NCBI GenBank assembly: GCA_028275775.1
Contig: JAPWTZ010000004.1
Span: 1,940 to 33,939, forward strand
DNA length: 32,000 nucleotides
Reading direction: 5' to 3'
Source of the DNA: Candidatus Nanopusillus sp.
GTDB lineage: Archaea > Nanobdellota > Nanobdellia > Nanobdellales > Nanobdellaceae
In this document: in pieces, positions 1,662-31,564 of the stretch
Position numbering within the stretch: the stretch's first letter is position 1
Layout: every line of letters starts with the position of its first letter
Made by a program: the position numbers and the translations under genes
Notes under the pieces: model-generated
What the model saw: the letters and a program-made list of their open reading frames with translations, nothing else
Told to the model about the DNA's origin: nothing
Database searches by the model: none

Positions 1662-2498
1662 ATGTTTGCACATGCTCAGGGTGAATATGATAAATCAAAA
1701 TGGATAATAGTAGGAATCCCATCTGAAATTGGTAGTTTATCTCATATAAAAAATTATATTGAGGGACCTGGATCAATTAGAGATGCATCATATAGAATAT
1801 TTTCTCCAATATTTGGGGATATAAATATGGAAGAAATATATGATTATGGTGATATAGATTTAGAAGATATAAAAGATCTAGATAAATTATATGAAAAAAT
1901 ATATAATGAAATTAAAAAAATATATAGGAAAGATAAAAAATATATATTTTTGGGAGGAGATCATTCAATAACATATCCAATATTAAAAATTGTTAAAGAA
2001 AATTGGGAAGATTTTTATTTATTATATTTTGATGCACATCCAGATATTCATCCAGATCCTTATCCAAATTATCAAAGTTTTATTTATCATTTAATAAAAG
2101 AAAATTATATCGAACCTGAAAAAATTATTTTTGTTGGTATATCTAATCTATCATTTGAAGAAAAGAATATAATAAAAGAATGGGGGATAAAATATTATGA
2201 TCCTTTATATATTTGGGATAATATAAAAGAAATATCGAGAGAAATATCAAATATATTAGAAAATAAAAATGTATATATTTCAATTGATATAGATGTATTT
2301 GATACAGGATGTGGACATTGGTTGGAAGGTATTGGAATTAGACCATATCATTATTTTAAGATTATAAAGGAATTAAGGAATGTTAATTTAATTGGTTTTG
2401 ATTTAGTAGAATTATTTTCAAATGAAGTATGTGATAATTTAGCTGCAAAAATTGTTATTGAATCAATAGCAATTTTTAATAAATTTATGCAATCTTAA
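1662..2498 (+). CDS. speB: Agmatinase / ureohydrolase family protein
   Basis: The arginase-fold metal-binding motifs GGDHSITYP, FDAHPDIH and SIDIDVFD are present. The length of 278 aa fits. Substrate assignment rests on PdaD being in the same window. Confidence 0.75.
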   Translation: MFAHAQGEYDKSKWIIVGIPSEIGSLSHIKNYIEGPGSIRDASYRIFSPIFGDINMEEIYDYGDIDLEDIKDLDKLYEKIYNEIKKIYRKDKKYIFLGGDHSITYPILKIVKENWEDFYLLYFDAHPDIHPDPYPNYQSFIYHLIKENYIEPEKIIFVGISNLSFEEKNIIKEWGIKYYDPLYIWDNIKEISREISNILENKNVYISIDIDVFDTGCGHWLEGIGIRPYHYFKIIKELRNVNLIGFDLVELFSNEVCDNLAAKIVIESIAIFNKFMQS

Positions 2499-3132
2499 AA
2501 TATGTTTGATTAATTCTTTCTAAATATACTGTTACAAATTGATAAAATGTAATATTATTTATTGAATAGCATGGTATATAATTGCATATAATATTTCCAT
2601 TTGTATTTTCTGTACATGTAATATTTCCAGATAAATTTGTTGGAAATAGAAATACAAATGTTTGATTTGAAGTACTTTCGTTACTCAAACAAAAATAATA
2701 TAAAAAATAGTAAAAATCTGAATAATAATTTTTACATATGGTTAATTTAATATAATCTAATGAATAAGCTATAGAAATTGGATATACATATGTATTGCAA
2801 TTTCCATTAAAATTTATTATTCCAAAACTATAATTATTTATTTCTGCTCTAAATGCATAAGGAAATATTGTACAATTTGGAAGTTCATTATAATATGTTT
2901 GGTTAAACTGTTCTATTTTTTCTAATGTTGTAAAATATACTGGATAATTTGGATATCCTAAACAATTTGGAGAAAATAAATCATATATTATATCCTGTTC
3001 ATATGAAAAAGATGTTTGTTCTTTATAATTTGTTAAATTTATATTAGAAAATATAGCTAATAAAATTATCATTCCAACTAAAAATAATACAATTAATATT
3101 GTTATAAATACTATAGATAATTGTTCCTTCAT
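2485..3132 (-). CDS. Membrane-anchored, sequon-rich surface protein (last gene of the 12-gene operon)
   Basis: It starts MKEQ followed by a hydrophobic helix of about 22 residues. The mature part has about 10 N-x-S/T sequons and 8 or more Cys, is rich in Tyr and Asn, and has few Lys or Glu. It lies 7 nt after the preceding gene. Confidence 0.6.
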   Translation of the reverse strand: MKEQLSIVFITILIVLFLVGMIILLAIFSNINLTNYKEQTSFSYEQDIIYDLFSPNCLGYPNYPVYFTTLEKIEQFNQTYYNELPNCTIFPYAFRAEINNYSFGIINFNGNCNTYVYPISIAYSLDYIKLTICKNYYSDFYYFLYYFCLSNESTSNQTFVFLFPTNLSGNITCTENTNGNIICNYIPCYSINNITFYQFVTVYLERINQTYFKIA

Positions 3133-3139
3133 TTATTTT

Positions 3140-4459
3140 TTATCTAATATGTATGTTTTTTCCACCTCCTCCACCTCCACCGCCAGATCCACCCCCACCA
3201 TTTTGTCCACATGAAGATTGACCAGATGGTTGCGGTACACATTGATCTGGGAAGGGTATAGTTTGTGGACATGTTGGATTATTTGGACATGCACCAGGTA
3301 AACATACAGGACATGGAGCAGAACCAATTATGCAAATATAGCATTCAATTGGTATTGAATAATAATATGGAAATGTATATGTTATTTCACAATCTTGTTG
3401 ATTTGTATTTACATTACCACAACCGTTAAGGGGTGTACATGAATATTGTTGACTTTCTAATGTACAACTTTTAGATATTACTTGATTGTTTGTTAAATTA
3501 TATGTTTCAGTACATTTATATATGCAATTTAGATAATATTGATTTGTTACATTTTCATAAAAAACTATAGAAGTAATTATTATTGTTTGTGGATATGTAT
3601 TGCCATTATAATATACATTATATTGGTTATCAGAGCATCTTAATATTACCCTGCATGCAATTTCCCAAGGATATAAACATGCTTTACATAAAGGAATATC
3701 TATACATTGATATGGAATTATTGTTTCATTACATTCAATATAAGGATTATTTGAAAATTGCTCAAAGGCTTGCACACAATTATTAGTTGTAACATGATTA
3801 TATATTTCATTATAACAATCTTGGAAAGAACATTCTGAAAATTCTCCACTTTGAGAAAATTGATATGCTAAATTGTATAAATAAAATGCAGGATTGTTTG
3901 TTATATTCGATGTAGTTGCATATGGAATTATTGAACCAGAAGAAGGACCTGTAATATTTATATATAATCCTTGAACATAAATTGGAAAATTATAATTATA
4001 TTCTCCAGAAGTTATATTACTGCAATCTCCAATAATTCCTGCTTGATAATTATTTGAAAAATTGAAAGATATATTATAAGGATAGTAATATTTATATGTA
4101 GTTAAATATTGATCCCCATAAGTTAATAAAGTTTCATATCCAGAAGATAATAAATTATTATAATATTGAAGCGCATTTTGACATGGTTGAGGTAATATAC
4201 ATCCTGGAGGAAAAGAAGCCCATTCCTCTTTTCCCCATCCATTTGTTCCAGCTATATAGGATTCTGAATAACCTGTTTGTGCTAATAATGTTTGTAAATA
4301 TCCTAAAAAATAATTTGATAATGTAGATAAAGAGGTAAATCTATTAAAAACAATATTTTGATTGTAATTATATGTTAATGCATAAAAAGATAGAAGGATT
4401 ATTAATATTGCAATTGTTAAAAATAAAACTACATAAATAACTTCTACCTGATTTTTCAT
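3140..4459 (-). CDS. Membrane-anchored Cys-rich surface protein with a Cys/Pro-rich C-terminus and poly-Gly tail
   Basis: It starts MKNQ plus a TM helix. I count about 26 Cys in 439 aa and fewer than 10 Lys, with many sequons. The C-terminus reads ...CPVCLPGACPNNPTCPQ...GGGGSGGGGGGGGKNIHIR. Its start overlaps the upstream stop by 4 nt. Confidence 0.65.
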   Translation of the reverse strand: MKNQVEVIYVVLFLTIAILIILLSFYALTYNYNQNIVFNRFTSLSTLSNYFLGYLQTLLAQTGYSESYIAGTNGWGKEEWASFPPGCILPQPCQNALQYYNNLLSSGYETLLTYGDQYLTTYKYYYPYNISFNFSNNYQAGIIGDCSNITSGEYNYNFPIYVQGLYINITGPSSGSIIPYATTSNITNNPAFYLYNLAYQFSQSGEFSECSFQDCYNEIYNHVTTNNCVQAFEQFSNNPYIECNETIIPYQCIDIPLCKACLYPWEIACRVILRCSDNQYNVYYNGNTYPQTIIITSIVFYENVTNQYYLNCIYKCTETYNLTNNQVISKSCTLESQQYSCTPLNGCGNVNTNQQDCEITYTFPYYYSIPIECYICIIGSAPCPVCLPGACPNNPTCPQTIPFPDQCVPQPSGQSSCGQNGGGGSGGGGGGGGKNIHIR

Positions 4460-5667
4460 ATTTTTAATTTAACATGTAGATATATAAATGTTAATATAAG
4501 AATAGGTGTTACTAGTCCATGTATAATTCCAAGTGCTATTAATATATTTGGTATAGATATTAAATGTATACTACTTGGTCCTCCAAATAATACTGATTCG
4601 AGGAATTCTCCAGTTATATTTTGTAATAAGATTAAAATACCAATGGAAATACCTAAAGCTTTTGTTATTACCTTTTTGCTGTTTCTAAATATTTTATAAT
4701 GTATACCCATAAAGAAAAATAATAAAGCAATTAAATATCTAGTATGTAATGCTGCAGAAGTAAAATCTGTATATAATAGATATAGTTCTCCAAAAAATAT
4801 TATTAAGACCATTGTTATAAGCAAAAAATAGTTTGTTGGTATATTATATTTTAAATTTCTATAAACTAAAATATAAATAATGATTTCATATATTGATAAA
4901 AGTATTAAGGATTCATATATATATAAATAATATTTTCCAATTAAACTACTTATAACTAAGTTTCTATATATTAATAATTGATTTAATGAAATAAAGATTT
5001 GGATTATTATAATAGAAAATATTAATAGAAAAATGTATTTTTTATATTTATAAATTTCAGAAATAATTCTAAATATTTTTGTTTTTGATAATAATATTTC
5101 ATTTCCATTAAAGTACATAACTAAGAATAAGAAAATTGCAAAAACAATAAATAATAAGGTATATATTATTTCAAAGGTATAAAGATGTAAATATGAGTAA
5201 TTAATGAGCAAAGATATTATATAGTTCATTTTTACATCAAGATCTGTAGTTGCAGAATTATAAATAAGTTCTAGGAAAAATTGTATTATAAATAATATTA
5301 TTGAGATTATATAAAATATTGATGATTTCTTTGAAATATATAAATTGTTTTCAAATAGATAATATCCCATAGAAAATGCTATAAAATAAAATATCCAATA
5401 ATTTACTATATAAGTAAATATTGATGGAAATGGAAAAGGTAAAGGCAAATTGGTGTAAATTCCAAAGATTCCAATTGGTATATATAATGGAAATATTAAT
5501 TTATATATTAAAGATGTATTCTTTGAATTTTTTAATATAAAAGATAATAAGAACAAATATACTGTACCGAAAATAATTATATTAATATTAAAGTTGCTAA
5601 TATAAGTAAAAAGTAAAAACAATATTAAATATATAAAAAATAAAATTTTATCTTCTTTTTTTACCAT
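4456..5667 (-). CDS. Polytopic integral membrane protein (about 11-12 TM helices), unknown family
   Basis: The 403 aa are almost entirely hydrophobic helices separated by short loops. The gene is translationally coupled on both sides (7 nt and 4 nt overlaps). It has no WWDYG (AglB) motif and no prepilin-peptidase DxD/GxGD motifs. Confidence 0.65.
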   Translation of the reverse strand: MVKKEDKILFFIYLILFLLFTYISNFNINIIIFGTVYLFLLSFILKNSKNTSLIYKLIFPLYIPIGIFGIYTNLPLPFPFPSIFTYIVNYWIFYFIAFSMGYYLFENNLYISKKSSIFYIISIILFIIQFFLELIYNSATTDLDVKMNYIISLLINYSYLHLYTFEIIYTLLFIVFAIFLFLVMYFNGNEILLSKTKIFRIISEIYKYKKYIFLLIFSIIIIQIFISLNQLLIYRNLVISSLIGKYYLYIYESLILLSIYEIIIYILVYRNLKYNIPTNYFLLITMVLIIFFGELYLLYTDFTSAALHTRYLIALLFFFMGIHYKIFRNSKKVITKALGISIGILILLQNITGEFLESVLFGGPSSIHLISIPNILIALGIIHGLVTPILILTFIYLHVKLKI

Positions 5668-7283
5668 ACTGTTAATTCAGCAACTAGATACCCGCCCAGG
5701 AATGGTATACCCATTGGTAAATAAATATAAGAAACATATATATTTGTATTTGGAGGTATTGGATATCCCAAACTTATAGTTTCTCCACTACCTTCATACA
5801 TATATGCATTTAGTTCTTCCACATTCCCTTTATCTGTAATACAATATGCTCTTGCCATTGCAACACCATTTCCTCCAGGATGAGGATCATAATATACTGC
5901 GGAAATTATAAATTGAGATGTATTTTGAGCTCTATCATCTATTACCCATTTAGTAATATTAAATCTATAAATTCCTTCTGCATTTGAATTTTGATTAAAT
6001 AAATAAACTAAAGGGCATTCTTTTCCAACAATAATTCCATTTACATTTTGTACACTATCGAATACACCAGTTGGACAATCTATTGTTTCTCCATTTAAAT
6101 TATATTCACATAAAGGATCTGCTGCTAAAAATACATAATCTGGTTCTCCACTTTTATTTAAAAAAGAAATATACAATCTTACTACTTCATGCCATGGATA
6201 ATCTATAAATACTTGTTGACAATTTGGAGGTATATTTACTATGCCTCTATAAAATGATCCAACAATTAATTCCTGACCTCCACATTGCTGAGAAGGACCT
6301 GAATAGCTTGTACCGAATTCTTCTTGACATATCTTATTTAAATATTGTTGTGGGATTATAAACTCTGCTAATCTATTTATATTGGTAGCAGTTTTATATA
6401 CTGGAGGTCCATAATAATAGTAAGGAATACTTGTTAAATATTGAAAACCTGCTACTGGAGTTCCAATTCCTACCCATCCAGAGAAGAATTGTGGTAATGA
6501 AAAAGTTGGTTGTGGAGTTATTGAATAACTAAAGGTTTCATAATTTGGGAATAAATTCCATTCACCTTGTGGGCAATATACAGAAGCGTTTGTAAAATTA
6601 TAACTTGGAAATATTTTTGTTAATGGTGTACACAAGCCAGTTTGTACAGCTAGAGATTGAGTCATTCCATTATATAATGTTGGTAATCCCCACAAACTTA
6701 TTGATTGAGACTGATGAAATGGCGCTGTTGCATTTACCCATCCTGCTCCATATAATGTTTGAGTTACTGGTATATTAATATTTTCTGTATAATTATCTAC
6801 AAAGAAATATGTATAATTCCATTCATACCATTGTGTACCATCTGGATCTGGAGGGGGATTCATTGAGCAAGGATCCCAATTTCCAATATTACCACCTACT
6901 ATAAACATTTGAACAACCCATCCAGTTACTGGTGGGATAAAATATATAGTTAAGTTCCATCTATTTCCATATATACTATCAAAATAATTTATTAGATCTT
7001 CTGATATATTTGTACATATATTTTGATTTATACAATATGTATCATTTCCAGAAGATGAAAAATAGGATAATAAAAATGCATAGGATAAATTAACTTTATG
7101 ATCATAAATATAAGGTAATAGATCAATGCTATTTTGAATTGTTAATGTATATTGATTTTCTACATTATATGTTTGTGTTATTTTAGAACTAGAACTGGTT
7201 GATAATAAATAAACCAAAATTATTAATAAAATTATTATTGAAATAATAATAACAAATGCTAATGTATTAATCTGATTTTTCAT
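5661..7283 (-). CDS. Large membrane-anchored surface protein (540 aa), unknown family
   Basis: It starts MKNQ plus a TM helix and an SSSS linker. The mature part is rich in Tyr, Asn, Pro, Gly and Trp, with paired Cys and many sequons. Its start overlaps the upstream stop as ATGA. Confidence 0.65.
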   Translation of the reverse strand: MKNQINTLAFVIIISIIILLIILVYLLSTSSSSKITQTYNVENQYTLTIQNSIDLLPYIYDHKVNLSYAFLLSYFSSSGNDTYCINQNICTNISEDLINYFDSIYGNRWNLTIYFIPPVTGWVVQMFIVGGNIGNWDPCSMNPPPDPDGTQWYEWNYTYFFVDNYTENINIPVTQTLYGAGWVNATAPFHQSQSISLWGLPTLYNGMTQSLAVQTGLCTPLTKIFPSYNFTNASVYCPQGEWNLFPNYETFSYSITPQPTFSLPQFFSGWVGIGTPVAGFQYLTSIPYYYYGPPVYKTATNINRLAEFIIPQQYLNKICQEEFGTSYSGPSQQCGGQELIVGSFYRGIVNIPPNCQQVFIDYPWHEVVRLYISFLNKSGEPDYVFLAADPLCEYNLNGETIDCPTGVFDSVQNVNGIIVGKECPLVYLFNQNSNAEGIYRFNITKWVIDDRAQNTSQFIISAVYYDPHPGGNGVAMARAYCITDKGNVEELNAYMYEGSGETISLGYPIPPNTNIYVSYIYLPMGIPFLGGYLVAELTVW

Positions 7284-8104
7284 TTTAGATAATATAAAAG
7301 AATAACTAGGCCTATTATTATAATTACTATTACTATTGCTACTGGTAAAATTAAGTTAACATTATTACTTTTATTACTTATATTTGGTTGTGGATAAATT
7401 AATTGTTGGGTATTATTTGTTTGATTTACTTGAGTCTGATTTATGCATTCAAATACTCCTGTACATGATATATATATAATATTTGGTGGTGGACATTGCT
7501 GTAAAAATTCTTGATATAATTGATTTAATGAATAATTATATGGACATCTAAACCAATCTCCTTCAAATGATAAGTTTTCTGGACAATATCCACATTGATA
7601 TTCTTTTTGATATGCAGATAAAATAGTTTGATAAGAAGCATTACCTGTCAAATAAGATTGGGGTATATATGGTGGATTAAAACATGGATAAACCTGATTT
7701 GAACATGGTTGATAATACCATGGAGTATTTGAGCAATTTAATAAACTATTACAATATACTCTTGGAAGTATAATTAAATCTTCATATGCTGATGGAGGAA
7801 TTAATGCATATGGACTAACCAATGTTCCATTTGGATATTCACAATAACTACTATTTACATATATTAATCCATAATGGGCACAAAAAGAATATTGTGGAGG
7901 TACTTCGTTTTCATAATATTGTATAGCATCAAAATATGTACCATTTACAATACAATAAGAACCTGTGCTGTTTGTATAATATGTTCCTCCACCATATTCA
8001 CAATAAACTGCTAATGGATTTATCATGGAATGTATATTATAAAGTAAAGATATAAAAATAATTATAAATAATATTAATATTTTTTTATTGTGCGAGAGTA
8101 ACAT
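7280..8104 (-). CDS. Cys-rich surface protein with an N-terminal signal, a C-terminal TM anchor and a possible DUF333-like motif
   Basis: The N-terminal hydrophobic segment is followed by NPLAVYCEYGGGTYY...GSYCIVNGTYFDAIQYY. This resembles the NPA-x-VYC..GG...C..DG DUF333 signature, and a degenerate second copy follows. The C-terminus LILPVAIVIVIIIIGLVILLYYLK is a TM anchor. The true start may be slightly downstream, given the 20 nt overlap. Confidence 0.55.
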   Translation of the reverse strand: MLLSHNKKILILFIIIFISLLYNIHSMINPLAVYCEYGGGTYYTNSTGSYCIVNGTYFDAIQYYENEVPPQYSFCAHYGLIYVNSSYCEYPNGTLVSPYALIPPSAYEDLIILPRVYCNSLLNCSNTPWYYQPCSNQVYPCFNPPYIPQSYLTGNASYQTILSAYQKEYQCGYCPENLSFEGDWFRCPYNYSLNQLYQEFLQQCPPPNIIYISCTGVFECINQTQVNQTNNTQQLIYPQPNISNKSNNVNLILPVAIVIVIIIIGLVILLYYLK

Positions 8105-9671
8105 TTTGGATTGCTACAACTACATAAGGAAATGATAAGCCATAAGGAGATTGATCAAATGGTACGTATACATATCCATCTTGCATCCAATAAACACCTC
8201 CACACGACCATTCTGATGATAAAGAAAATTCTTGCTCTAGTTCCTGATTGCAAAGCTGATAATTAAAATAATATTCGCTGCATGCAGTAAGAGGGCATAT
8301 AGAACTATAACATATATAGCTTACACCAATTTCACCATTTTGAGCAACAAGTATGCATCCAGATCTCTCCCCCCATTGGTTTTCAAATATCCAACATTTA
8401 GGAGTTCCATACATTTCTTGACATAGTTGAGAATTTATGGTATAGCCAACTAATAGCATGACATGTCCCGAAGTTACATATTCTTCAGGATATATATTTG
8501 GATTAGATCCACCTGTCCCTCCCATCAATCCAGCAACTACTAATGGTCCATAACATAATAAATCTTGGATTATTTGTTGATCGGATAAAGGTCCATTTTG
8601 TGAAAGAAAGATAACATCTTTTGGATAATACAATGGAGAGCTAGGTCCATTATAATTAAAATTACATACATCACCCGGATAGCTATCATAGTTCTGATAT
8701 TCTTCTTGTGGACAATGATTTCCTAAAGTAGATTCATAATAGCTCCATCCAGGATCGGGTGGTATACCGTATTGAGATGTATAATATATGCCATAATATA
8801 AACCAGATGCTGTGGGAATACCATTTTCATTAAAAATAGTCTCACTACCACGACAACCGCTATTGTACTTGCAATAACTTGGAGCATTTGGATAACCATT
8901 ATTACATTCTATTGCTAGATATGCTGGAGATAATTGTAATCCTTCATTTGGTTCGTTATTTCTTATCATATATACTGAAGCAATTCCATTTGAACTAGCA
9001 AAAGCCCAACAATCTCCGCAATCTCCCTGATCCCCTATTGGAGGTATATAGCTATTTCCATTTACATCACCCCAGAAAAAACTTGCCTGTCCAGTATATT
9101 TAACTAGACATTGAGCATTTGGATTAATATTATTATTGTTATTTCCTTGATTATTTCCTCCATTATTATTACTACTTCCCCCATTGTTTTGATTATTATT
9201 GTTTTGATTGTTTTCTGGAGTTATATATATAAGAGTTCCATTTGGTAAATATTCATTTAATATTGTAATTGAATTTTGAAGGTTTGTTGTAATAAAAACA
9301 GTATTATTTGTACTAACAAGATATATATAATTGTTTGGATACAGAAAACTTACATTTTGATTATTATTATATAATGTTACATTCTTGTAAAAATTAATTG
9401 TATAATTGTTATTATTATATTGTATTATTAATTCAGTACCATTTGCAAATAATATAACTCCATTTGGTATATTAACTTTTACATAAGTAGTGCCTTGAAT
9501 ACTATTTATTGTATTCTCTAAATTTTGTAAATTATTAATAAAATTTTCAAATATTAAATTTTCTTGTTGTTTTTTAATATTCATAGAATATTGATAATAT
9601 ATTATAAAAGCTAAAGATATAATTACCAATATTATTGCTACTGAAAGCAAATTTAATTGATATCTTTTCAT
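8085..9671 (-). CDS. Membrane-anchored papain-family (C1A) cysteine peptidase
   Basis: It has an N-terminal TM helix, a Cys-free beta-rich module of about 120 aa, an Asn/Gly linker (nt 9114-9215) and then a papain fold. The catalytic signature is complete. GDQGDCGDCWAFASS supplies Gln215 and Cys221 (nt 9009-9011), SGHVMLLVGY supplies His403, and ENQWGERSG supplies Asn431. Confidence 0.8.
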   Translation of the reverse strand: MKRYQLNLLSVAIILVIISLAFIIYYQYSMNIKKQQENLIFENFINNLQNLENTINSIQGTTYVKVNIPNGVILFANGTELIIQYNNNNYTINFYKNVTLYNNNQNVSFLYPNNYIYLVSTNNTVFITTNLQNSITILNEYLPNGTLIYITPENNQNNNNQNNGGSSNNNGGNNQGNNNNNINPNAQCLVKYTGQASFFWGDVNGNSYIPPIGDQGDCGDCWAFASSNGIASVYMIRNNEPNEGLQLSPAYLAIECNNGYPNAPSYCKYNSGCRGSETIFNENGIPTASGLYYGIYYTSQYGIPPDPGWSYYESTLGNHCPQEEYQNYDSYPGDVCNFNYNGPSSPLYYPKDVIFLSQNGPLSDQQIIQDLLCYGPLVVAGLMGGTGGSNPNIYPEEYVTSGHVMLLVGYTINSQLCQEMYGTPKCWIFENQWGERSGCILVAQNGEIGVSYICYSSICPLTACSEYYFNYQLCNQELEQEFSLSSEWSCGGVYWMQDGYVYVPFDQSPYGLSFPYVVVAIQNVTLAQ

Positions 9672-9707
9672 TATGAGTTAATAATATTTATAAAATTTTA
9701 AAAATTT

Positions 9708-10148
9708 TTAACTTGGATTTTCTATATAAATTGTTACTTCTGTTGGAGAAGTTTTTTCAACAAGTAGTGGTATTTTTTCATTTGGATTTCCATATGATAA
9801 TTCATAAAATAATCCAGAAGTATAATATTGAATCATACTATTTGTTGTATTTATTATTACATTGCATGGCAATGTATAATTGTAGTATTCATCATATATA
9901 TAACAACTTAATAAATTATTATTTGCATAAATATAATTTAAATACTTGTTTATTTCAATATTAATATAAATTTCTGTTCCAGTATTTGAATAACATACTC
10001 TTTCAATTGTTGTATACAAATTCTGGCAAGATGATATATCTTGATATAATAATTGAGTTTGATTATTTATACTTGAAAATTTAAAATATAAATATAAAGA
10101 CAATCCAAAAGCAATAATTGTTACAATTATCCAAAACCACTTTTCCAT
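9708..10148 (-). CDS. Small membrane-anchored protein, paralogue family member (pilin-like architecture)
   Basis: The 146 aa have an N-terminal hydrophobic helix, an SCQNL motif soon after it and a C-terminal beta-strand EVTIYIENPS. The architecture is shared with the three genes upstream. Confidence 0.55.
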   Translation of the reverse strand: MEKWFWIIVTIIAFGLSLYLYFKFSSINNQTQLLYQDISSCQNLYTTIERVCYSNTGTEIYINIEINKYLNYIYANNNLLSCYIYDEYYNYTLPCNVIINTTNSMIQYYTSGLFYELSYGNPNEKIPLLVEKTSPTEVTIYIENPS

Positions 10149-10150
10149 TT

Positions 10151-10564
10151 TTATCCTTGAACATTAATATAAACATAATTTCCTGCCGAATATATTAATA
10201 TATATTCTCCAGGATTTATATTATAATTACAATTTTGCATTACTACATTTGGATCTATACTACTTACATTATTTATTAAATCCTGACATGTAAATGGTTC
10301 TCCTTGATAGTTAATTAAATAGCAAAGACCCTGAGCTTTTTTATAATAACATGCCACTACATCCATTGCAACATCTTGTATCGAATTTACATTTGTTTCT
10401 ACTACAGTTTGTGTACTATTATATTTAGGCATTATACTACTAATGTAAGAAGTTATATTTCCTCTTAATAAAAATATTATTCCTAAAATTACTACTGTAA
10501 CAATTATTCCTATAATTATTAAAAATGTATAATTAACTGGAAGTTCTTGAGACTTTATTGCCAT
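10151..10564 (-). CDS. Small membrane-anchored protein, paralogue family member (pilin-like architecture)
   Basis: The 137 aa have a short polar leader and a hydrophobic helix of about 22 residues. They also carry a TCQDL motif and the C-terminal strand YILIYSAGNYVYINVQG. Confidence 0.55.
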   Translation of the reverse strand: MAIKSQELPVNYTFLIIIGIIVTVVILGIIFLLRGNITSYISSIMPKYNSTQTVVETNVNSIQDVAMDVVACYYKKAQGLCYLINYQGEPFTCQDLINNVSSIDPNVVMQNCNYNINPGEYILIYSAGNYVYINVQG

Positions 10565-11034
10565 ATTACAATATAACTATTGTTGTATATTATAAATATA
10601 CTATTGTATGGATAAATATTTCCATCACTATTATTTAAATGAAATATAATATTATTTGGATTAAATGTGGTATAATTTTGTATATATTGAATTAATATTG
10701 ATGAATTAAGAACAATATTCTCATCTATATAAACATCATAACATATATTAAATAATTTATTTGTATTTACATTATTATTGTAGCAATTTAATATTAATCC
10801 TGTTATATCTGAATAAATTGTATCATTACTTTCATTTGTATACATAACATTTATTGCTGAAGGATAATATTTTTCACATGATGGAGAAAAACCACCTTGT
10901 GATATTAATGTTTGACAATAATATGCTTGAGAATTGCCAAAAAACTTTGTATAAATAATATCTAATATAACTGCAACAGATATTATTGCTATTATAATAA
11001 TAAATACAGTATCTATTGCTATATCATTCTTCAT
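10555..11034 (-). CDS. Small membrane-anchored protein, paralogue family member (pilin-like architecture)
   Basis: The 159 aa start MKND plus a hydrophobic helix. They carry a YCQTL motif and the C-terminal strand IFIIYNNSYIVIWQ. The start overlaps the upstream stop by 4 nt. Confidence 0.55.
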   Translation of the reverse strand: MKNDIAIDTVFIIIIAIISVAVILDIIYTKFFGNSQAYYCQTLISQGGFSPSCEKYYPSAINVMYTNESNDTIYSDITGLILNCYNNNVNTNKLFNICYDVYIDENIVLNSSILIQYIQNYTTFNPNNIIFHLNNSDGNIYPYNSIFIIYNNSYIVIWQ

Positions 11035-11315
11035 ATATAATTAATACTTCCGTTATAAATATATATAATTCTATAGCCTGCAGGTATTGTTATTCCATTT
11101 ATTGTACAATTTTCATTAAGAAATACTTTAATATTAATTATTTCCTGAAAACTTTTATTATATAGATTTTCTAACTGTTGGCAATTAATTGTTTGTATAT
11201 TATTTCCACTCAAATTATTTTTTATATTATAAATATAATAAAAAGAAAATAAACTAGCAGCTATAATTAATATAAAAGTTATTATAATCCAATATATTGA
11301 TTGTTGCAATTTCAT
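11031..11315 (-). CDS. Small membrane-anchored protein, paralogue family member (pilin-like architecture)
   Basis: The 94 aa start MKLQQ plus a hydrophobic helix. They carry an NCQQL motif and the C-terminal strand RIIYIYNGSINYI. The start overlaps the platform gene stop as ATGA. Confidence 0.55.
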   Translation of the reverse strand: MKLQQSIYWIIITFILIIAASLFSFYYIYNIKNNLSGNNIQTINCQQLENLYNKSFQEIINIKVFLNENCTINGITIPAGYRIIYIYNGSINYI

Positions 11316-13282
11316 AATTGTATATTTGTTGGTAAATATGGGCCAAATACTGTATATACTATCAATATTCCTATTATTGAAAATATTACATAAAATATTG
11401 TTCCAAATAATAAATTTCTACCTATATAATATGATGTCATTGTATTATCAAATCCATATTTTATTCCAGCACTCATATATGAAGTTATTATTACATATTC
11501 TATAAAAAATATACCAATTATTGCTTCAAAAAATGTTGGTGGTATTAAATTATATAGATTAAATGTATTTACAATGAAATTGAATAAGTTTGTTCCTCCA
11601 CCAAGGCCAAAAGATTGGTCTATTAATTGAAAGAAATATGCAAGTGCAAAAAGCATTGAAACTACTCCATTATTAAAGACCGTAACCATTCCAGAAATTA
11701 ATGGTACTAGATCTCTTGATGTCATATCTATTAATCCAATTATTTCATTTAATATTTTTCTTACACTATATCTTATGTTATTTACATTTTCTAAGTTTAT
11801 TGATATATTATATGCAATCTTTGATAAAACTTCAGGACCTTTTGATGCAGAAGTAACTAACAATTGCATAGATTCTCTTACTAATTTTGATGGATATAAA
11901 TTTAATGAGCCAATTTTTGGATCAAATATAGAAGTACCTAAATCATAACCTCTTCTTAAATTATATAATGTTGTTTTTAGGAAATTTTCCATAACTCCAG
12001 ATGATTTTATTATTTTATAATTATAATATGTTTTTTCAATTACTATTTCAAATGGATATCCATCTTCCAATAATGATGCAAATTCATATACAACAATTGG
12101 AAACTCATTTTCTATTTCTTCAATTTGATATATTTTTTTAACTTTTTGGAAAGATGTTAAATAATAATAAGATCCTATACCTAAACCCAATCCTAAAGGT
12201 AATGTTAAAGTTAAAACAGAATATATTAATGCTCTATCCTGATAAACTATATTTAAATAATCACTCAAAAATCCTTGTGGAATAAATGTAATCCTTATAG
12301 CTAGAGAAACTAAATGATATATTCCCAAAACTGCAATTGATCCTAATATTATTGAAATTATTATTGCTGGAACTTCCTTATTTCCAATTTTAAATTTTCC
12401 AGGTTTTGGTAAATCTCTTGCTAAGGATAAATCTGGAACAGAAAATGCAAATGGATTTTTTGATAAGAAATTTTGAATTATTAAAAATGTAATAACTGGT
12501 AAAATTATTATATATGAAAATGCTATGAAATAGAAACTTACTGTATTTAATAAAAATACGGATATTATTGGTAACATCATCAAACTAACTATTGGCATCA
12601 TTACTAAGAAAGATACTATAACTGTTGCTGGTTCTTTTAAAGCATCTACATATAACTGGGATTTTTCTAGGGATTTCTTTAATACCCATCCCAAAATTCT
12701 ATCTAATAATTTATTTATATCATCAATAGATGTTTTATATTTAATGTTTACAATATGTGTCATTGCATATACAAAATCTGGACTTAAATAAAACCATCTT
12801 CTCTGATAATATTCTAATGCAGATTCTATATCTTTAAATTTATTTGTTTCTAAGTTATATAATAATGATCTAAAGTCTGTTGCAATATAACCTCTCATAT
12901 AATATGCTACATATTTTATTCCATTCTCTAAATTAGGATTTCTTTTTAGATATAATGATAAATATAGAATTATCCATACAATTTCTGATGTTACCTGAAT
13001 TCTAACTACTTGTGTATAGAATATTGGATAATATGCGAAATAGAATGATAAAATTAATAAAGATATTAACAAAGAAAAAGCAAATTGAAAGCTTACAAAA
13101 CTTAAAATAAAATATATGATTATAGAAAATAATATAAGAGTTATTACGGAAGAGAATATATTATCTGGATTTGTATTTAGTCTATTTAACCATAAATGAA
13201 ATGCATATTTTTTATATATTGGACCAGGAGCTCTTAGTTTTATTAAATTAAAATTATTATAAAAATATTCAAAAAAACTCAT
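11312..13282 (-). CDS. Polytopic membrane protein resembling FlaJ/TadC/PilC platform proteins (two T2SSF-like domains)
   Basis: The 656 aa contain two repeats, each a soluble helical segment of about 120 aa followed by TM helices. The second reads EFPIVVYEFASLLEDGYPFE...LYPSKLVRESMQLLVTSASKGPEVLSKIA, which matches the T2SSF pattern (lP..l..la.ll.aG...PS..l.....l....GG.l...L). The first is a weaker copy. The gene is adjacent to pilin-like genes. This call is from memory, not from an HMM. Confidence 0.55.
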   Translation of the reverse strand: MSFFEYFYNNFNLIKLRAPGPIYKKYAFHLWLNRLNTNPDNIFSSVITLILFSIIIYFILSFVSFQFAFSLLISLLILSFYFAYYPIFYTQVVRIQVTSEIVWIILYLSLYLKRNPNLENGIKYVAYYMRGYIATDFRSLLYNLETNKFKDIESALEYYQRRWFYLSPDFVYAMTHIVNIKYKTSIDDINKLLDRILGWVLKKSLEKSQLYVDALKEPATVIVSFLVMMPIVSLMMLPIISVFLLNTVSFYFIAFSYIIILPVITFLIIQNFLSKNPFAFSVPDLSLARDLPKPGKFKIGNKEVPAIIISIILGSIAVLGIYHLVSLAIRITFIPQGFLSDYLNIVYQDRALIYSVLTLTLPLGLGLGIGSYYYLTSFQKVKKIYQIEEIENEFPIVVYEFASLLEDGYPFEIVIEKTYYNYKIIKSSGVMENFLKTTLYNLRRGYDLGTSIFDPKIGSLNLYPSKLVRESMQLLVTSASKGPEVLSKIAYNISINLENVNNIRYSVRKILNEIIGLIDMTSRDLVPLISGMVTVFNNGVVSMLFALAYFFQLIDQSFGLGGGTNLFNFIVNTFNLYNLIPPTFFEAIIGIFFIEYVIITSYMSAGIKYGFDNTMTSYYIGRNLLFGTIFYVIFSIIGILIVYTVFGPYLPTNIQL

Positions 13283-13286
13283 TACA

Positions 13287-14051
13287 TTAGCTTGTTGTGC
13301 TTGGTATATTATTTAACTGGGAATATGGTACTTGCAATAAGAATTGACATAATGGCATTCCATTGGCATTATTATTTATACCCAATGCTGCGCAATTTCC
13401 AGTTACTGTTAATACTCCATTATTAACTATTAAATTCAAATTACATCCATCTGCAGTATTATAATAGTTAATAATCTTTAATAATGCACCAAATACCTGG
13501 TTTGTAATCCATGTTGGTAATTGTGCAGAACATTGTACTGGACCTGGATTTAATATTGAAGATGGAGAAGAAATTTGAATATTTGCTTGTCCAGATGCTA
13601 CATTAAATGATGTAGTGGAAGAATAATTTCCGAATACATAACTTGTTGCTTGTTCTGGGCTATAATATAAATTATCAATATAATTTTGACATTCTAGATA
13701 CATACAATCTAGAGGTGTTATTGTATATCCTTCATATTGACATTGACTAGAAGAACCTCCATATAATTGTAATAATACACTGCATGGGACAGCATTTGAA
13801 CAAATATAATATCCCGGACTTACTTGTACAAGTCCATTTCCTATATCTTCATACTTTGTACAAAATGTTGTTGGTGAACTTGAACAATAACTTGAACAAT
13901 CTGAAACTGCCTGTTGTATTTGTGTATTTGATATCGTACTAATCTTTGATGATTGCTGCTGGAATAACTTAATTACAACAACTGCTACTACTAACATTAT
14001 TATTATTACAAATATTAACTGTACAGCCATATCTATACCCCTCCTTTTCAT
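13287..14051 (-). CDS. Pilin-like secreted or surface protein (first gene of the operon)
   Basis: MKRRG-IDMAVQLIFVIIIMLVVAVVVIKLF is a short basic leader ending in Gly followed by a hydrophobic helix. This looks like a class III (prepilin) signal but is not a perfect FlaFind match. The mature part has 12 Cys and is rich in Ser, Thr, Asn and Gln. Confidence 0.5.
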   Translation of the reverse strand: MKRRGIDMAVQLIFVIIIMLVVAVVVIKLFQQQSSKISTISNTQIQQAVSDCSSYCSSSPTTFCTKYEDIGNGLVQVSPGYYICSNAVPCSVLLQLYGGSSSQCQYEGYTITPLDCMYLECQNYIDNLYYSPEQATSYVFGNYSSTTSFNVASGQANIQISSPSSILNPGPVQCSAQLPTWITNQVFGALLKIINYYNTADGCNLNLIVNNGVLTVTGNCAALGINNNANGMPLCQFLLQVPYSQLNNIPSTTS

Positions 14052-14071
14052 AATTAAGGATAAACATTTTA

Positions 14072-14090
14072 TTCTTTATAAATATTTTTA
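14072..14090 (-). promoter_or_regulatory. Putative TATA box / promoter of the 12-gene operon
   Basis: The minus strand reads TAAAAATATTTATAAAG, centred about 29 nt upstream of the ATG at 14051. This fits a short-leader or leaderless archaeal transcript. It overlaps the stop of the DUF371 gene. Confidence 0.35.
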
Positions 14091-14495
14091 GTAGTATATA
14101 ATAAATTCCATATCCCTTTCATTCCTTAATCTTTCTATCAATCTTCTATCAATATCAATAGCACTCTTATTTGAATTTATTGCCAAAGTTCTATCATCAA
14201 TATAATTGCTTTTTCTTATAACAATACTTCTATCACTTGTTAATAATAATTTTTTTGAACCATATGCAATTATATCATCTATTAAATCATCAACTTTAAT
14301 TACAATCTTTATTTTTCCTTCATTTAATAGATGATCTTTGAGGTCTTCTGGTAAATCTTTTACAGAGTAATTTGCACTTATACCTATTATGCAATCCCCT
14401 CTTTCAGTTAAATAATTGTCCTTAGTAATTTCTAAAGTACTTCTATGTGTTGCTTTTATTAATTTATTTCCTTTAGCTTTTATTACTAATCTCAT
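14088..14495 (-). CDS. DUF371 domain protein
   Basis: The pattern ATHRSTLEITKDNYLTERGDCIIGISAN...IVIRKSNYIDDRTLAI matches the DUF371 signature (AtHktTlEiTkd..lt.rGDCIiGv...vRkS.f...RT). Confidence 0.65.
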   Translation of the reverse strand: MRLVIKAKGNKLIKATHRSTLEITKDNYLTERGDCIIGISANYSVKDLPEDLKDHLLNEGKIKIVIKVDDLIDDIIAYGSKKLLLTSDRSIVIRKSNYIDDRTLAINSNKSAIDIDRRLIERLRNERDMEFIIYY

Positions 14496-15324
14496 TTAAG
14501 TAATTTAATATTTCTCTTGTAATATTTTTATTTAAATATTTATCAAATCCTTCATATTGGAATATATGATGTAAATCTATTAAATAATATTGATTATCTT
14601 TTAATAGTAGATCAAATGCGAATATTTGTAAGTCACATTTTTCCATAATTTTATATCCAATATCTATTATTTCTTCATCCAATTTATATGGTCTTCCATA
14701 TGCACCTCTACTAATATTTGCCTTAAAACTATTTTTATTAATTCTTTCCATTGCACCAATTGGTTTTCCTATAAAAATTACTCTTATATCTCTTTCATAA
14801 GGTATATATTTTTGAAATATTAAATGTTTTATGTTTATTCTTTTTTCTAATAAATATTTTTCTAAAAAATCATACAGTTCCTTTTCATTATCTATTTTAT
14901 ATACAAATTCCCCCCTATGAATAAATTGATGCTTTATTACCATTGGAAAGCCTATTTTATTTATTACGTATTCTATATTATCTATTGAATATATTTTTGT
15001 GAATTCTGGAATTTCTATATATTTATTAAGAATGCTATAAAATAATGTTTTTGATATTATAGATTCTTTAACATGTATTTTATTTATTACTTCTTTTCCA
15101 TTTTGTTTAAGATATTTTGCTAAAAAATGTATATCTGATAAAAAATTTGATCCGACAAAAAAGTAATATAAATCATAATTCAATATTTTCCCATTATATG
15201 GAAATATATTTTCTTTTTCTATATCAACTATTTCAATGTTATTATAATTTTTTATTTCTTCCTTTAACTTTATTATCCTATAATCTTGTAAATAAGGTTT
15301 TGTTAATATAGCTACTCTACCCAT
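14473..15324 (-). CDS. ATP-grasp ligase, RimK-like
   Basis: The layout is GFPMVIKH...G, then QKYIPYERDIRVIFIG..IGAMERI, then FKANISRGAYG and FAFDLL...YYLIDLH. This is the RimK / glutathione-synthetase ATP-grasp arrangement. It overlaps the DUF371 gene by 23 nt. Confidence 0.7.
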   Translation of the reverse strand: MGRVAILTKPYLQDYRIIKLKEEIKNYNNIEIVDIEKENIFPYNGKILNYDLYYFFVGSNFLSDIHFLAKYLKQNGKEVINKIHVKESIISKTLFYSILNKYIEIPEFTKIYSIDNIEYVINKIGFPMVIKHQFIHRGEFVYKIDNEKELYDFLEKYLLEKRINIKHLIFQKYIPYERDIRVIFIGKPIGAMERINKNSFKANISRGAYGRPYKLDEEIIDIGYKIMEKCDLQIFAFDLLLKDNQYYLIDLHHIFQYEGFDKYLNKNITREILNYLNEISNKS

Positions 15325-25036: not shown

Positions 25037-25522
25037 ATGAACCCGCGGAGTCTAGTACCAAAAAAAGTTTTCTTTACTTCTGGTATAGGTATATCAGATG
25101 ATCCATTATTAAGTTTTGAATATGCATTGAGAGATGCAAAAATAGAGAAGTTTAATTTAGTTCCAGTATCAAGTATAGCACCGCCAAATATAAAAATTAT
25201 AGACATAGATGAAGGATTAAAATATTTAAAGGCAGGTCAGATTGTATTTTGTGTTTTATCTAGATTTACTTCAAATGAAGAAGGTAAAGAAATATTTTCA
25301 TCAGTTGGAGTAGCATTACCTAAGGATAAAAAATATAATGGATATTTTACAGAATACCATGGATATTATACTGGAAAAGAGGAAGGATATGCAAAAAATA
25401 TGGCAAAAAATATGTTAAAGTCTATGTATAATATAGAAATAGATAAGGAATTTGAAATATTTAAAAAAGCTACTGTAAAGGATTATACAACTGTTGTATC
25501 TGCTGCAGTTTTTATTTTATAA
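25037..25522 (+). CDS. pdaD: Pyruvoyl-dependent arginine decarboxylase
   Basis: The signature is VPKKVFFTSGIG...SFEYALRDAKIEKFNLVPVSSIAPP. The self-cleavage Ser-Ser pair is at nt 25169-25174. The 161 aa length is typical of PdaD. Confidence 0.8.
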   Translation: MNPRSLVPKKVFFTSGIGISDDPLLSFEYALRDAKIEKFNLVPVSSIAPPNIKIIDIDEGLKYLKAGQIVFCVLSRFTSNEEGKEIFSSVGVALPKDKKYNGYFTEYHGYYTGKEEGYAKNMAKNMLKSMYNIEIDKEFEIFKKATVKDYTTVVSAAVFIL

Positions 25523-26350
25523 TTATTCGAATATTTTTTGATATATTTCTTTTAATTGACTTGGAACAACGTGAGTATATATTTGTGTAATATTTAATGA
25601 ACTATGACCAAGTATTTCTTGTATATATCTTATATCAACACCTTTTGATAATAATGTTGTCGCAAGAGAGTGTCTTAATACATGTGGAGTTACTTTTTTG
25701 TTTATTCCAGCTTTTTTTGCAATATTTTTTATAATTCTTTCTACTTGTCTTGATGATAATGGAAATATATTTTCAGTATTTATTTTATTTATATAATCCT
25801 TTAATTCATTTAATAATTCTTTTGGTATTGGTACTATTCTTTCTTTTCCCCCTTTTCCATATACTTTTACAAAACCCTCTTCAAAAATTATATCATTCTT
25901 TTTTATTTTTACTAATTCTGAAACTCTTACTCCTGTATAAAATAGGAATTTAATAATTAGTTTATCTCTATAATTTTCAGCATTTTCTATTAATTTATTT
26001 AATTCATCATATGTAATAAATTTTGGCAATCTTTTATCTACCTTTGGAGCTTTTATTTGTTTTGCCAAACTTTCATTATCTAAAAATTTTAAAAATGATG
26101 ATAGAGCTCTAACATATAATCTTAATGAATTTGAATCCAATTTTTTCTTAACCTTTATTTCAGCTAAAAATTTTAGGATTAAATTTTTATCTAAAGAATT
26201 ATTAATAGATTTTGTATCTGTAATAATTATTCCATTATTTATTAGGAATTCTAAAAACCTCTTTATTATACCTGAATATGTTTTTATTGTATTTTTAGAT
26301 TTTCCCTGTATTTCTAACCATACTTTATATTCTTCAATAATTTCATTCAT
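25523..26350 (-). CDS. xerA: Tyrosine recombinase, XerA/XerC/D-like
   Basis: It has an N-terminal SAM-like core-binding domain. The catalytic residues are present in YTGVRVSEL (Arg), HVLRHSLAT (HxxR) and LGHSSLNITQIYTHV (His and Tyr). Confidence 0.8.
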   Translation of the reverse strand: MNEIIEEYKVWLEIQGKSKNTIKTYSGIIKRFLEFLINNGIIITDTKSINNSLDKNLILKFLAEIKVKKKLDSNSLRLYVRALSSFLKFLDNESLAKQIKAPKVDKRLPKFITYDELNKLIENAENYRDKLIIKFLFYTGVRVSELVKIKKNDIIFEEGFVKVYGKGGKERIVPIPKELLNELKDYINKINTENIFPLSSRQVERIIKNIAKKAGINKKVTPHVLRHSLATTLLSKGVDIRYIQEILGHSSLNITQIYTHVVPSQLKEIYQKIFE

Positions 26351-31424: not shown

Positions 31425-31457
31425 TTTATAATTTCTTTTTATCATAAAATTTATATT

Positions 31458-31530
31458 GGGCCCGTAGCTTAGTTGGTAAAGCGTCGGGCTCTTAACCCGA
31501 AGATCGGGGGTTCGAATCCCCCCGGGCCCG
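31458..31530 (+). tRNA. tRNA-Lys (anticodon CUU)
   Basis: A hand-folded 73 nt cloverleaf. The acceptor is GGGCCCG/CGGGCCC, the D stem GCTT/AAGC and the anticodon stem TCGGG/CCCGA. The anticodon loop is C-U-CUU-A-A, the variable loop is 5 nt, and the T arm is GGGGG-TTCGAAT-CCCCC. The discriminator is G and no CCA is encoded. TTTATAAT lies about 25 nt upstream and a T-run at 31533-31539 lies downstream. Confidence 0.92.
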
Positions 31531-31564
31531 GGTTCTTTTATATATAATTATTAAATAATATTTT

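Follow-up and report, generated by a model that had tools for sequence, protein, structure and literature searches.

A probable type IV filament operon without a linked ATPase in the archaeal lineage Nanopusillaceae/Nanobdella

What is built by a run of 12 tightly coupled genes in the small genome of a Candidatus Nanopusillus species, and does the run encode a surface machine? The genes lie in contig JAPWTZ010000004.1 of assembly GCA_028275775.1, within a stretch of 32,000 nucleotides (nt) of ~24% G+C (contig positions 1,940 to 33,939), which is called the window below and whose positions are used throughout. The block spans 2485-14051 and consists of 12 open reading frames (ORFs), all on the minus strand, numbered here from G1 (13287-14051) to G12 (2485-3132). 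An initial annotation made from the sequence alone had described twelve consecutive minus-strand ORFs with seven overlaps, and the recomputed coordinates and junctions match that description: from G1 to G12 the junctions measure +4, -4, -4, -10, +2, +36, -20, -4, -7, -4 and +7 nt, seven of them being overlaps of 4-20 nt. The reading favored here, to which we assign a probability of roughly 60%, is that the block encodes the structural half of a type IV filament (TFF, type IV pilus-like) system specific to the Nanopusillaceae and Nanobdella, with a membrane platform and about ten pilin-like proteins.

The source was suspected to be a reduced DPANN organism, and this was borne out by the closest homologues of G2 and G9, which came from Nanopusillaceae and Nanobdella, the named sources of the best ones being Nanopusillus sp., nanoarchaeote Nst1 (Nst1_645), strain YN1 (YN1_4460) and Nanobdella aerobiophila (MJ1_0107). 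The synteny check in related DPANN genomes that had been proposed with the initial annotation was run over ~10 kb on either side of the anchor gene in four relatives: Nanopusillus sp. RHS.bin.5 (L001; G2 identity 96%), the Nanopusillaceae metagenome-assembled genome (MAG) KM4331-08 (L002; 79%), the complete genome of strain YN1 (L003; 77%) and the complete genome of Nanobdella aerobiophila MJ1 (L007). The whole block was collinear in all four of these Nanopusillaceae/Nanobdella genomes and the flanks were alike, with rpoH, RimK and DUF371 upstream and an arginase-family gene downstream. The ratio of nonsynonymous to synonymous substitution rates (dN/dS), calculated against RHS.bin.5, ranged from 0.09 to 0.42 across all block genes, with the lowest value in G2 (0.09) and the highest in G1 (0.42), compared to 0.13 for the neighboring RimK and DUF371 genes. 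The synteny in four relatives and this range of dN/dS show that these are true genes, not ORFs arisen by chance, and that they are maintained under purifying selection. The operon is restricted to this clade: 40 homologues were found for G9, all the named ones belonging to Nanopusillaceae or Nanobdella (Nst1_645, MJ1_0107), and seven representatives of G10 were present in 1.84 billion proteins.

The first component to be identified was the platform protein. G2 (656 aa; 11312-13282, minus strand) has ~9 predicted transmembrane helices and two predicted cytoplasmic helical bundles. Among its 16 homologues, the eight distant ones share 24-29% identity with it over 83-99% of the query (E 1e-29 to 1e-65), and six of the 16 match PF00482 (T2SSF), with a best E of 5e-9. 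The G2 family profile also matched the cytoplasmic domain of GspF/EpsF (2vma; E=0.012). Within G2, residues 75-185 align with residues 368-483 (E=2.8e-4), so that the two-repeat layout of the T2SSF family can be seen as an N half against a C half. The AlphaFold2 model is all-helical, with a predicted local distance difference test score (pLDDT) of 85 and a predicted template-modeling score (pTM) of 0.82; a Foldseek search with this model against the PDB gave nothing significant, the top probability (0.77, E=0.21) belonging to the PilC model 3jc8_Ca of the type IVa pilus machine. Transitive homology and the internal repeat give indirect but consistent support to G2 as a divergent T2SSF/TadC/FlaJ-type platform. 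This agrees with the initial annotation, which had proposed a FlaJ/TadC/PilC-like platform with two T2SSF-like repeats; the contrary outcome, that 11312..13282 falls outside the T2SSF family, was not what the profile and structure searches returned.

Seven loci with a G2 homologue were examined outside the Nanopusillaceae (L004, L005, L006, L008, L009, L010 and L011). In L008 the platform gene is isolated, while in the six others, which come from Woesearchaeota, Aenigmarchaeota and other MAGs, a T2SSE ATPase gene lies directly upstream of the G2 homologue. The linked ATPases have 740-772 aa, except for that of L009 with 1249 aa including an intein, and the ATPase and platform genes overlap in four of the six loci (4-32 nt), with a gap of 4 nt in L006. 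The platforms are homologous to G2 over nearly their full length, and the loci continue, as the Nanopusillus block does, with small and large genes in a row on the same strand, which have no Pfam family and many of whose products have a basic tip followed by a hydrophobic helix; in L004, L005, L006 and L009 many of these proteins begin with [KR]G and the helix. The small pilin of L004 is, moreover, homologous to G1. The position of the ATPase next to the platform in six of seven distant loci implies an ancestral plan of ATPase, platform and pilins, and by this comparison the Nanopusillaceae version has lost the linked ATPase, with G1 standing in its position. The differences are as follows: the distant loci begin with the T2SSE ATPase, whose place is held by G1 here; their tips are canonical [KR]G, in contrast to mostly K-[N/S]-Q here; no C1 protease was seen in them; and, at E<1e-3, none of G3-G12 has a counterpart in them, G1 alone having one.

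Some features of the distant loci deserve mention in their own right. The 1249-aa TFF ATPase of L009 (4283-8032) contains an intein with a LAGLIDADG endonuclease, and inteins were also present, among the matches listed, in several ATPases of this DPANN family (~1276 aa). Divergently from the ATPase gene, L004 (4753-6358), L005 (2821-4527) and L009 (1383-3057) encode three paralogous membrane proteins of ~170-210 aa with the motif FGFF..(V/L)LPFLL, plus two coiled-coil proteins, a side cluster that has no counterpart in the Nanopusillaceae operon. In L010 (346-3623), genes for a Peptidase_C25 (gingipain-type cysteine protease) and a Peptidase_M28 adjoin the ATPase-platform-pilin locus, which may be a second case of proteases associated with DPANN TFF loci.

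If the linked ATPase is gone, what powers the machine? The Walker A pattern [AG]xxxxGK[ST] was absent from every frame of the 32 kb window, and no T2SSE gene was found in the four relatives, 10 kb to each side of the anchor gene being covered. The description of the module as one "without an ATPase" is therefore true of the locus but probably not of the machine, in view of the ATPase-linked homologous loci and of published tables. Nanoarchaeote Nst1 has five secretion ATPases, three of clade 2, one of the archaellum and one of clade 4 (Makarova et al. 2016, PMC4858521), and this organism carries the operon (Nst1_645 being its G9). A Nanopusillus-like single-cell genome has three COG0630 ATPases, one of which (2244 bp) adjoins an annotated T2SSF gene of 2010 bp (Jarett et al. 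2018); this pair is a locus other than the G1-G12 operon. Among the best 120 of 4929 matches in a search with the Woesearchaeota ATPase, which were 55-100% identical, none was named as Nanopusillaceae or Nanobdella. It is most likely that an ATPase is supplied in trans and that the machine is not ATPase-less. A different explanation would be that the ATPase was lost in genome reduction and that a decaying remnant is left from which nothing is assembled, as might be suggested by the absence of the ATPase from the locus in five of five genomes, against its presence in six of seven distant homologous loci, and by the loss from the window of a 13th gene described below. We regard such decay as highly improbable: all genes are intact in five genomes spanning 40%-96% protein identity, dN/dS is 0.09-0.42 with G2 as the most constrained gene, and genomes that are among the smallest known would hardly keep 11.6 kb of useless DNA. 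Since the value for G2 (0.09) is below the 0.13 of its housekeeping neighbors, the machine does not appear to be decaying.

The next question is whether the platform is accompanied by subunits. A class III signal has a short basic tip, Gly, Ala or Ser at position -1 and ~20 hydrophobic residues that are kept in the mature protein. G1 (254 aa; 13287-14051, minus strand) begins with MK(R/K)R(G/S/A), followed by (I/V)(D/E)MAV(Q/E)LIFVI(I/L)IMLVVAV, its first 30 residues being almost invariant across the five genomes, and continues with a Cys-rich domain (12 Cys). The G1 profile matched a 119-aa pilin-like protein of the Woesearchaeota locus L004 that begins with MKKRGQ (E=2.7e-6, 20.9 bits, in a database of 255 ORFs), and the match included a common Cys pattern after the helix; no Pfam or NCBIfam family was matched by G1, and its profile found nothing among the PDB sequences at E<=10. 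Judged by its N-terminus, G1 has a canonical class III (prepilin-type) signal and is the candidate major pilin. The earlier view of the first gene as pilin-like gained support both from this signal and from the match to the L004 pilin.

Four small genes follow the platform gene on the same strand. G3 (94 aa; 11031-11315) begins with MKLQQ, MKNQQ or MKSQG before a hydrophobic helix, a motif kept in its orthologues, and has a weak sub-threshold match (E=0.046) to TIGR04205, a model for proteins with a class III signal peptide domain. G4 (159 aa; 10555-11034) begins with MK(N/T)DIA(I/L)DT and a helix, and G5 (137 aa; 10151-10564) with MAIKSQELP in the window and MK(N/S)QEMP in KM4331-08 and YN1; the likeness between G4 and G5 is limited to 25 N-terminal columns. 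These three are classified as small pilin-like proteins. G6 (146 aa; 9708-10148) is small and N-terminally anchored (MEKWFWII...), without the basic/Q motif. Across the operon, the M-K-[N/S]-Q tip with small variations, followed by ~20 hydrophobic residues, occurs in G3, G5, G7, G9, G11 and G12 and is kept in their orthologues, while the N-terminal helix of G6 and G8 is not preceded by the tip motif. A strongly hydrophobic helix starting in the first 20 residues was found in 10 of the 12 products, with G6 just under the cut-off; the same criterion selected one of the 25 other ORFs of the window. In profile-profile comparison, similarity between the products was confined to the first 20-65 residues. 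Similarity limited to the N-terminus is typical of pilins. The four small proteins had been presented as paralogous membrane-anchored proteins; they are indeed alike in their N-terminal 20-40 residues, but paralogy of G3-G6 beyond the N-terminal helix was undetectable by profile-profile comparison, so that they are related no further than pilins usually are.

The start of the operon is marked by a conserved promoter-like element. A TATA-like box, TTTATAAA, is located on the minus strand at 14075-14082, 24-31 nt before the G1 start codon, in agreement with the prediction of such a box near 14080. The string (T/C)TTATAAA occurs at -31..-24 of the G1 ATG in five of five genomes (the window, RHS.bin.5, KM4331-08, YN1 and MJ1), while the neighboring bases diverge. 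The element TTTATAAA is the probable promoter of the operon, and the mRNA would be leaderless or have a short leader. The upstream RimK gene is preceded by its own conserved TATA-like box. G1-G12 are probably driven by their own promoter, read-through from the RimK-DUF371 pair being possible. A TATA-like string in the 36 nt gap between G6 and G7 was considered as an internal promoter and rejected, as it is not kept in RHS.bin.5.

Besides the small proteins, the operon encodes large ones in which a pilin-like N-terminus seems to carry a head. G7 (528 aa; 8085-9671, minus strand) consists of a pilin-like N-module (~1-140), an N-rich linker, a C1 domain (~190-440) and a C-terminal extension. Its match to PF00112 (E=4e-14; 53.6 bits against a curated cut-off of 20.7) was the only one in Pfam and NCBIfam scans of the 12 products, Peptidase_C1 on G7 being returned and no pilin or class III signal family. 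The PDB matches were falcipain-2, cathepsin K and papain, and the motifs DQGDCGDCWAF (aligned to the active-site Cys region of falcipain-2), SGHV and NQWG supply the catalytic Gln, Cys, His and Asn. G7 is accordingly predicted to be a papain-family (C1) protease with its catalytic residues intact, as the earlier assignment of a membrane-anchored papain-family protease had it. It has PF00112 and the Gln/Cys/His/Asn set in common with the C1A proteases falcipain-2, cathepsin K and papain, and differs from them in several respects: it has no I29-type prodomain or Sec signal, the domain is joined to a pilin-like N-module via the Asn-rich linker, a Cys-containing C-terminal extension of ~90 residues is present, and the domain has moved between two carriers. 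In strain YN1 the C1 domain is found on the G6 orthologue instead (579 aa; Peptidase_C1 at residues 304-500, E=6e-18). The N-module of G7 alone forms a protein of 141-143 aa in KM4331-08 and YN1 (141 aa in YN1). No C1 domain occurs anywhere in the block of KM4331-08, while RHS.bin.5 and MJ1 resemble the window in the C1 arrangement. The idea of the protease as a fixed part of the apparatus is contradicted by its other carrier in YN1 and its absence from KM4331-08; from these arrangements, the protease domain is read as exchangeable cargo, mobile between two carriers. The swap between carriers fits a design of a generic carrier helix with an exchangeable head.

The C-terminal third of the G7 gene (8119-8844) also represents the only breakdown of nucleotide similarity in the block when compared to RHS.bin.5 (14413-15108 of that locus). 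The protein identity of G7 to this 93%-identical relative is 74%, against 84-96% for the neighbors, and the C-terminal region of the protease is a local divergence hotspot.

G9 (540 aa; 5661-7283, minus strand) is a large pilin-like protein that begins with MKNQIN and a helix, followed by beta-rich heads. Its AlphaFold2 model, obtained with 23 sequences (pLDDT 78.5), has a helix at residues 2-54 and then alpha/beta and beta-sandwich domains; in this model the 53-residue N-terminal helix and the globular domains follow the "lollipop" plan of pilins. The best eight Foldseek matches in the PDB were PA14-type sugar-binding adhesins (among them Flo1, Flo5, Epa9, Cea1 and the bacterial RTX adhesin MpIBP) with probabilities of 0.75-0.96 and E ~1e-3, but with TM scores of 0.24-0.30 and root-mean-square deviations of 7-15 A, and PA14-type proteins also made up most of the lower-ranked matches with probability >=0.5. 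G9 had no match to Pfam PA14 at E<=1. The model suggests a PA14-like lectin head, which makes G9 a candidate lectin-type adhesin. G11 (439 aa; 3140-4459, minus strand) is another large pilin-like protein (MKNQVE and a helix) with 26 Cys and no family found; its first 65 residues match G9 (hhalign 86%, E=4.6e-6). The Gly-rich C-terminal tail of G11, GQNGGGGSGGGGGGGGKNIHIR (3140-3200), is present only in the window, the G11 proteins of the four relatives ending earlier without it. The last block gene in the window, G12 (215 aa; 2485-3132, minus strand), encodes a pilin-like protein that begins with MKEQLS here and with M(I)KNQFS in KM4331-08 and YN1 and has eight Cys and 10 N-glycosylation sequons. 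No family was detected in Pfam scans for the Cys-rich and sequon-rich G8, G11 and G12. The larger products had been listed as unclassifiable surface proteins, and this stands insofar as no family is recognisable, but G7, G9, G11 and G12 carry the pilin-like N-terminus of the small proteins and read better as pilin-like carriers with heads than as unrelated cargo.

Proteins of this kind are known from the Sulfolobus bindosome (BasABC, the BasE ATPase, the BasF platform and sugar-binding proteins with class III signals), in which functional proteins with pilin-type N-termini depend on a platform and small pilin-like proteins, as would be the case here. The bindosome is a precedent for TFF machinery that displays enzymes or binding proteins and not only fibers; the likeness is one of functional analogy only. 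By this analogy, the operon could specify a short pseudopilus or membrane-proximal scaffold that holds functional proteins in the pseudo-periplasm or S-layer. Such a scaffold is suggested by the pilin-like tip shared by four large proteins with enzyme or binding heads, by the four to five small pilin-like proteins encoded beside the platform gene and by the movement of the C1 head between carriers, and archaea are known to have both class III signals on non-pilins and the bindosome (PMC4858521; bioRxiv 10.64898/2026.04.22.720090). In contrast to the bindosome, the cargo here would be a protease and a lectin-like domain and not solute-binding proteins, the operon has no ATPase, and neither the block nor its vicinity contains genes for substrate-binding proteins or an ABC transporter. 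Furthermore, the conserved N-terminal helix of G1, its first position and the probable promoter before it are as expected of an abundant filament subunit. The sequence alone fits both a scaffold and a filament, and we hold the scaffold to be rather unlikely.

Two further products are predicted membrane proteins outside the carrier set. G8 (274 aa; 7280-8104, minus strand) has 14 Cys, is rich in N-glycosylation sequons, starts with a signal-like helix and ends in a conserved anchor; KM4331-08 and YN1 encode an additional, shorter copy (172-175 aa). The C-terminus of G8 (7280-7370) has the layout (I/L)(I/L)P - transmembrane helix - LLYYLK, kept in the four relatives, and this tail resembles in sequence the C-terminal sorting signals of archaeosortase type; an archaeosortase-family gene is included in the table of a Nanopusillus-like genome (Jarett et al. 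2018). G10 (403 aa; 4456-5667, minus strand), which had been given as a protein of about 12 transmembrane helices, is indeed polytopic (about 10-12), contains no Cys and belongs to a lineage-restricted family, the seven related representatives retrieved by the exhaustive search all being uncharacterised. His and Glu residues are conserved in it. G10 is probably a membrane accessory of the machine.

A 13th gene, paralogous to G10, was found in four of four relatives between G12 and the arginase gene. It encodes a polytopic protein of 345-348 aa, to which G10 is 33% identical over 167 aa (E=0.003), and occupies 20776-21844 in L001, 20538-21581 in L002 and 14683-15729 in L007. The window is without this segment of ~1.07 kb (site 2466-2498), and this is the reason why the 3' end of G12 overlaps the convergent arginase-family gene by 14 nt.

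What would process the N-termini is the point at which the TFF interpretation is most exposed. No prepilin peptidase (A24) model matched any of the 12 products, and none was found in the operon or the 32 kb window. A hidden prepilin peptidase in G10 was considered and rejected, since a GxGD motif is absent and its paralogue shares no Asp pair with it; the statement in the initial annotation that the operon has no prepilin-peptidase motifs is upheld by both results. Several observations weigh against the preferred reading, above all that the MK(N/S)Q tip is non-canonical and that no prepilin peptidase has been recognised in the lineage. A canonical class III cleavage site is present on G1 alone. 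Ser is acceptable at -1 of a class III signal, and Asn at this position, as in MKNQ, is not known from PibD/FlaK sites. In two nanoarchaea analysed previously there was no recognisable prepilin peptidase (PMC4858521). G2 itself had no match in Pfam or NCBIfam, T2SSF included, and its structural match to PilC was weak (E=0.21, TM score 0.16-0.27). The structural view of the pilin-like products comes from the G9 model, G1 and G3-G6 being called pilin-like from sequence, and the evidence for a partner ATPase in the operon-carrying genomes comes from published tables. The MK(N/S)Q tips may be cut by an unrecognised enzyme, may be cut after Ser/Asn or may stay uncut; that most subunits bear an MK(N/S)Q tip needing no canonical prepilin peptidase is an unusual possibility.

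The same tips can be read in a simpler way: the products would be common surface proteins, secreted or held by a signal anchor, whose genes happen to adjoin that of a platform paralogue, the helices would be Sec anchors, and G2 would either have a role unrelated to filaments or work with pilins encoded elsewhere. MK(N/S)Q does not offer the -1 residue of a class III signal (Gly, Ala or Ser), the nanoarchaea analysed to date have yielded no recognised prepilin peptidase, nine of the 12 products have no family match, and hydrophobic N-termini are common among the surface proteins of an AT-rich genome. This explanation has, however, to accommodate the tight translational coupling of 12 genes and their strict synteny across at least three genera, the conservation of the tip motif across six otherwise unrelated proteins and a predicted G9 helix of 53 residues, which is far longer than a signal anchor. 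In addition, proteins with canonical [KR]G class III motifs follow the platform in the homologous DPANN loci, and one of them is a homologue of G1. For these reasons, we consider the block improbable as a set of ordinary surface proteins.

Under the preferred reading of a structural TFF half, we infer the following: a filament is assembled from a main subunit, its subunits being processed at the N-terminus, with energy from an ATPase acting in trans, and the apparatus has a role in host contact. G2 would be the polytopic platform in the cytoplasmic membrane, with G1 as the likely main subunit and G3, G4, G5 and probably G6 as minor pilin-like subunits. G7, G9, G11 and G12 would enter the same assembly via the basic tip and the hydrophobic helix, where the head displayed by G7 would be a papain-type protease, that of G9 a probable PA14-like lectin and those of G11 and G12 Cys-rich domains. 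G8, anchored at both ends, and the polytopic G10 would act as membrane accessories. Energy would come from a FlaI/VirB11-type ATPase encoded elsewhere in the genome. The apparatus would most likely be used to recognise the host, to adhere to it and to digest its envelope locally.

How does such a machine compare with the filament systems already described? Archaellin (PF01917), ArlH and ArlI domains were absent from all 12 products, so the operon is not an archaellum, and the archaellum genes of these organisms have been reported at other genome sites. FlaJ/TadC homologues and "two T4P systems plus an archaellum" (T4P, type IV pili) have already been noted for Nanoarchaeota. The Epd locus of Methanococcus maripaludis, an 11-gene single transcription unit, is likewise a long operon with a platform, minor pilins and adhesin-like proteins, and all its genes are needed for piliation (2026 preprint, bioRxiv 10.64898/2026.04.22.720090); it differs in that an ATPase, a pair of platform genes and a dedicated class III signal peptidase belong to or accompany the locus, the major pilin being encoded elsewhere, and no homology to Epd was detected. 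The euryarchaeal-type T4P "system"/clade 2 has a single large platform, several pilins, accessories and adhesin-like proteins (PMC4858521; Sivabalasarma and Albers 2026) and, like the operon, includes pilin-like proteins without a clear class III motif. Its ATPases have long N-terminal extensions, as do the ATPases of the DPANN homologues. The operon is placed near system 2 by resemblance only, the clades being defined by ATPase phylogeny and the operon having no linked ATPase; no PilA-family or arCOG pilin match was obtained for its products. The earlier conclusion that the locus matches no described filament locus is correct in that its content is not that of the archaellum, Epd, Aap or Ups, but its general plan fits archaeal TFF loci, in which a platform, many pilins, a membrane accessory and large adhesin-like proteins are combined (PMC4858521; bioRxiv 10.64898/2026.04.22.720090). 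In the literature searched, neither the operon nor its set of pilin-like proteins was described, nor was a carrier bearing a protease or the altered tip. What is new here is a clade-specific TFF operon that is uncoupled from its ATPase and has altered signal tips and head-carrying pilin-like proteins.

The operon is surrounded by housekeeping genes. Genes for DUF371 (135 aa, E=6e-48) and a RimK-type ATP-grasp protein (14088-15324) are situated just upstream on the same strand, with a mutual overlap of 23 nt and a gap of 36 nt before G1, and this pair precedes the operon in five of five genomes. On one flank, rpoH, a split rpoB and rpoA are divergent to the block; on the other, the arginase-family gene is accompanied by a uracil-DNA glycosylase. 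Farther out in the window, genes for ribosomal proteins, FtsZ and a XerA-like recombinase are found. The arginase/agmatinase-family gene (1662-2498) and a pyruvoyl-dependent arginine decarboxylase (25037-25522) occur in the same window, which suggests that polyamine synthesis is kept in this reduced genome. The tyrosine recombinase (Phage_integrase, E=3e-43) at 25523-26350, amid ribosomal protein genes, is probably a XerA chromosome-dimer resolvase and not a mobile element. The sole tRNA of the window is tRNA-Lys (CTT) at 31457-31531.

Could the operon be part of the organelle by which these archaea attach to their hosts? Cryo-electron tomography of N. aerobiophila, YN1 and YN4 revealed a cone, a portal and a filament or tube of 6.6-8.2 nm, which crosses the host S-layer and extends hundreds of nm into the host cytoplasm, and the authors state that the protein composition of the organelle is unknown (PMC11104419, PMC11420986, bioRxiv 10.64898/2026.06.04.730037). 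Two of the strains with an imaged organelle, MJ1 and YN1, carry the operon. The width of a TFF fiber is about right for the organelle filament. If the attachment organelle of Nanobdellota owed its filament or tube, and the parts that open the host envelope, to this operon, the protease and the lectin-like head would suit the recognition and breaching of a glycosylated S-layer. Against this stand the other pilus-like systems of these genomes, the apparently hollow tube that is very long inside the host, and the cone subunit, which is unaccounted for by the operon; the assignment is speculative and, on balance, doubtful. Should the link to the organelle fail, the operon would count as a further divergent pilus locus of archaea, separated from its ATPase, of value for annotation and unsurprising.

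In the 2016 census of archaeal T4P, nanoarchaeal secretion ATPases were left without identifiable pilins (PMC4858521), a gap to which the operon may provide an answer. Its design feature would be the use of pilin-like N-modules as interchangeable carriers of enzymatic and adhesive domains. DPANN archaea, including the Nanoarchaeota, live attached to a host, and the operon offers a concrete, conserved and clade-specific candidate gene set for this contact, comprising the platform, G1 as the likely main pilin, the minor pilins and two heads, one a protease and the other lectin-like, and present in two cultivated strains, MJ1 and YN1.

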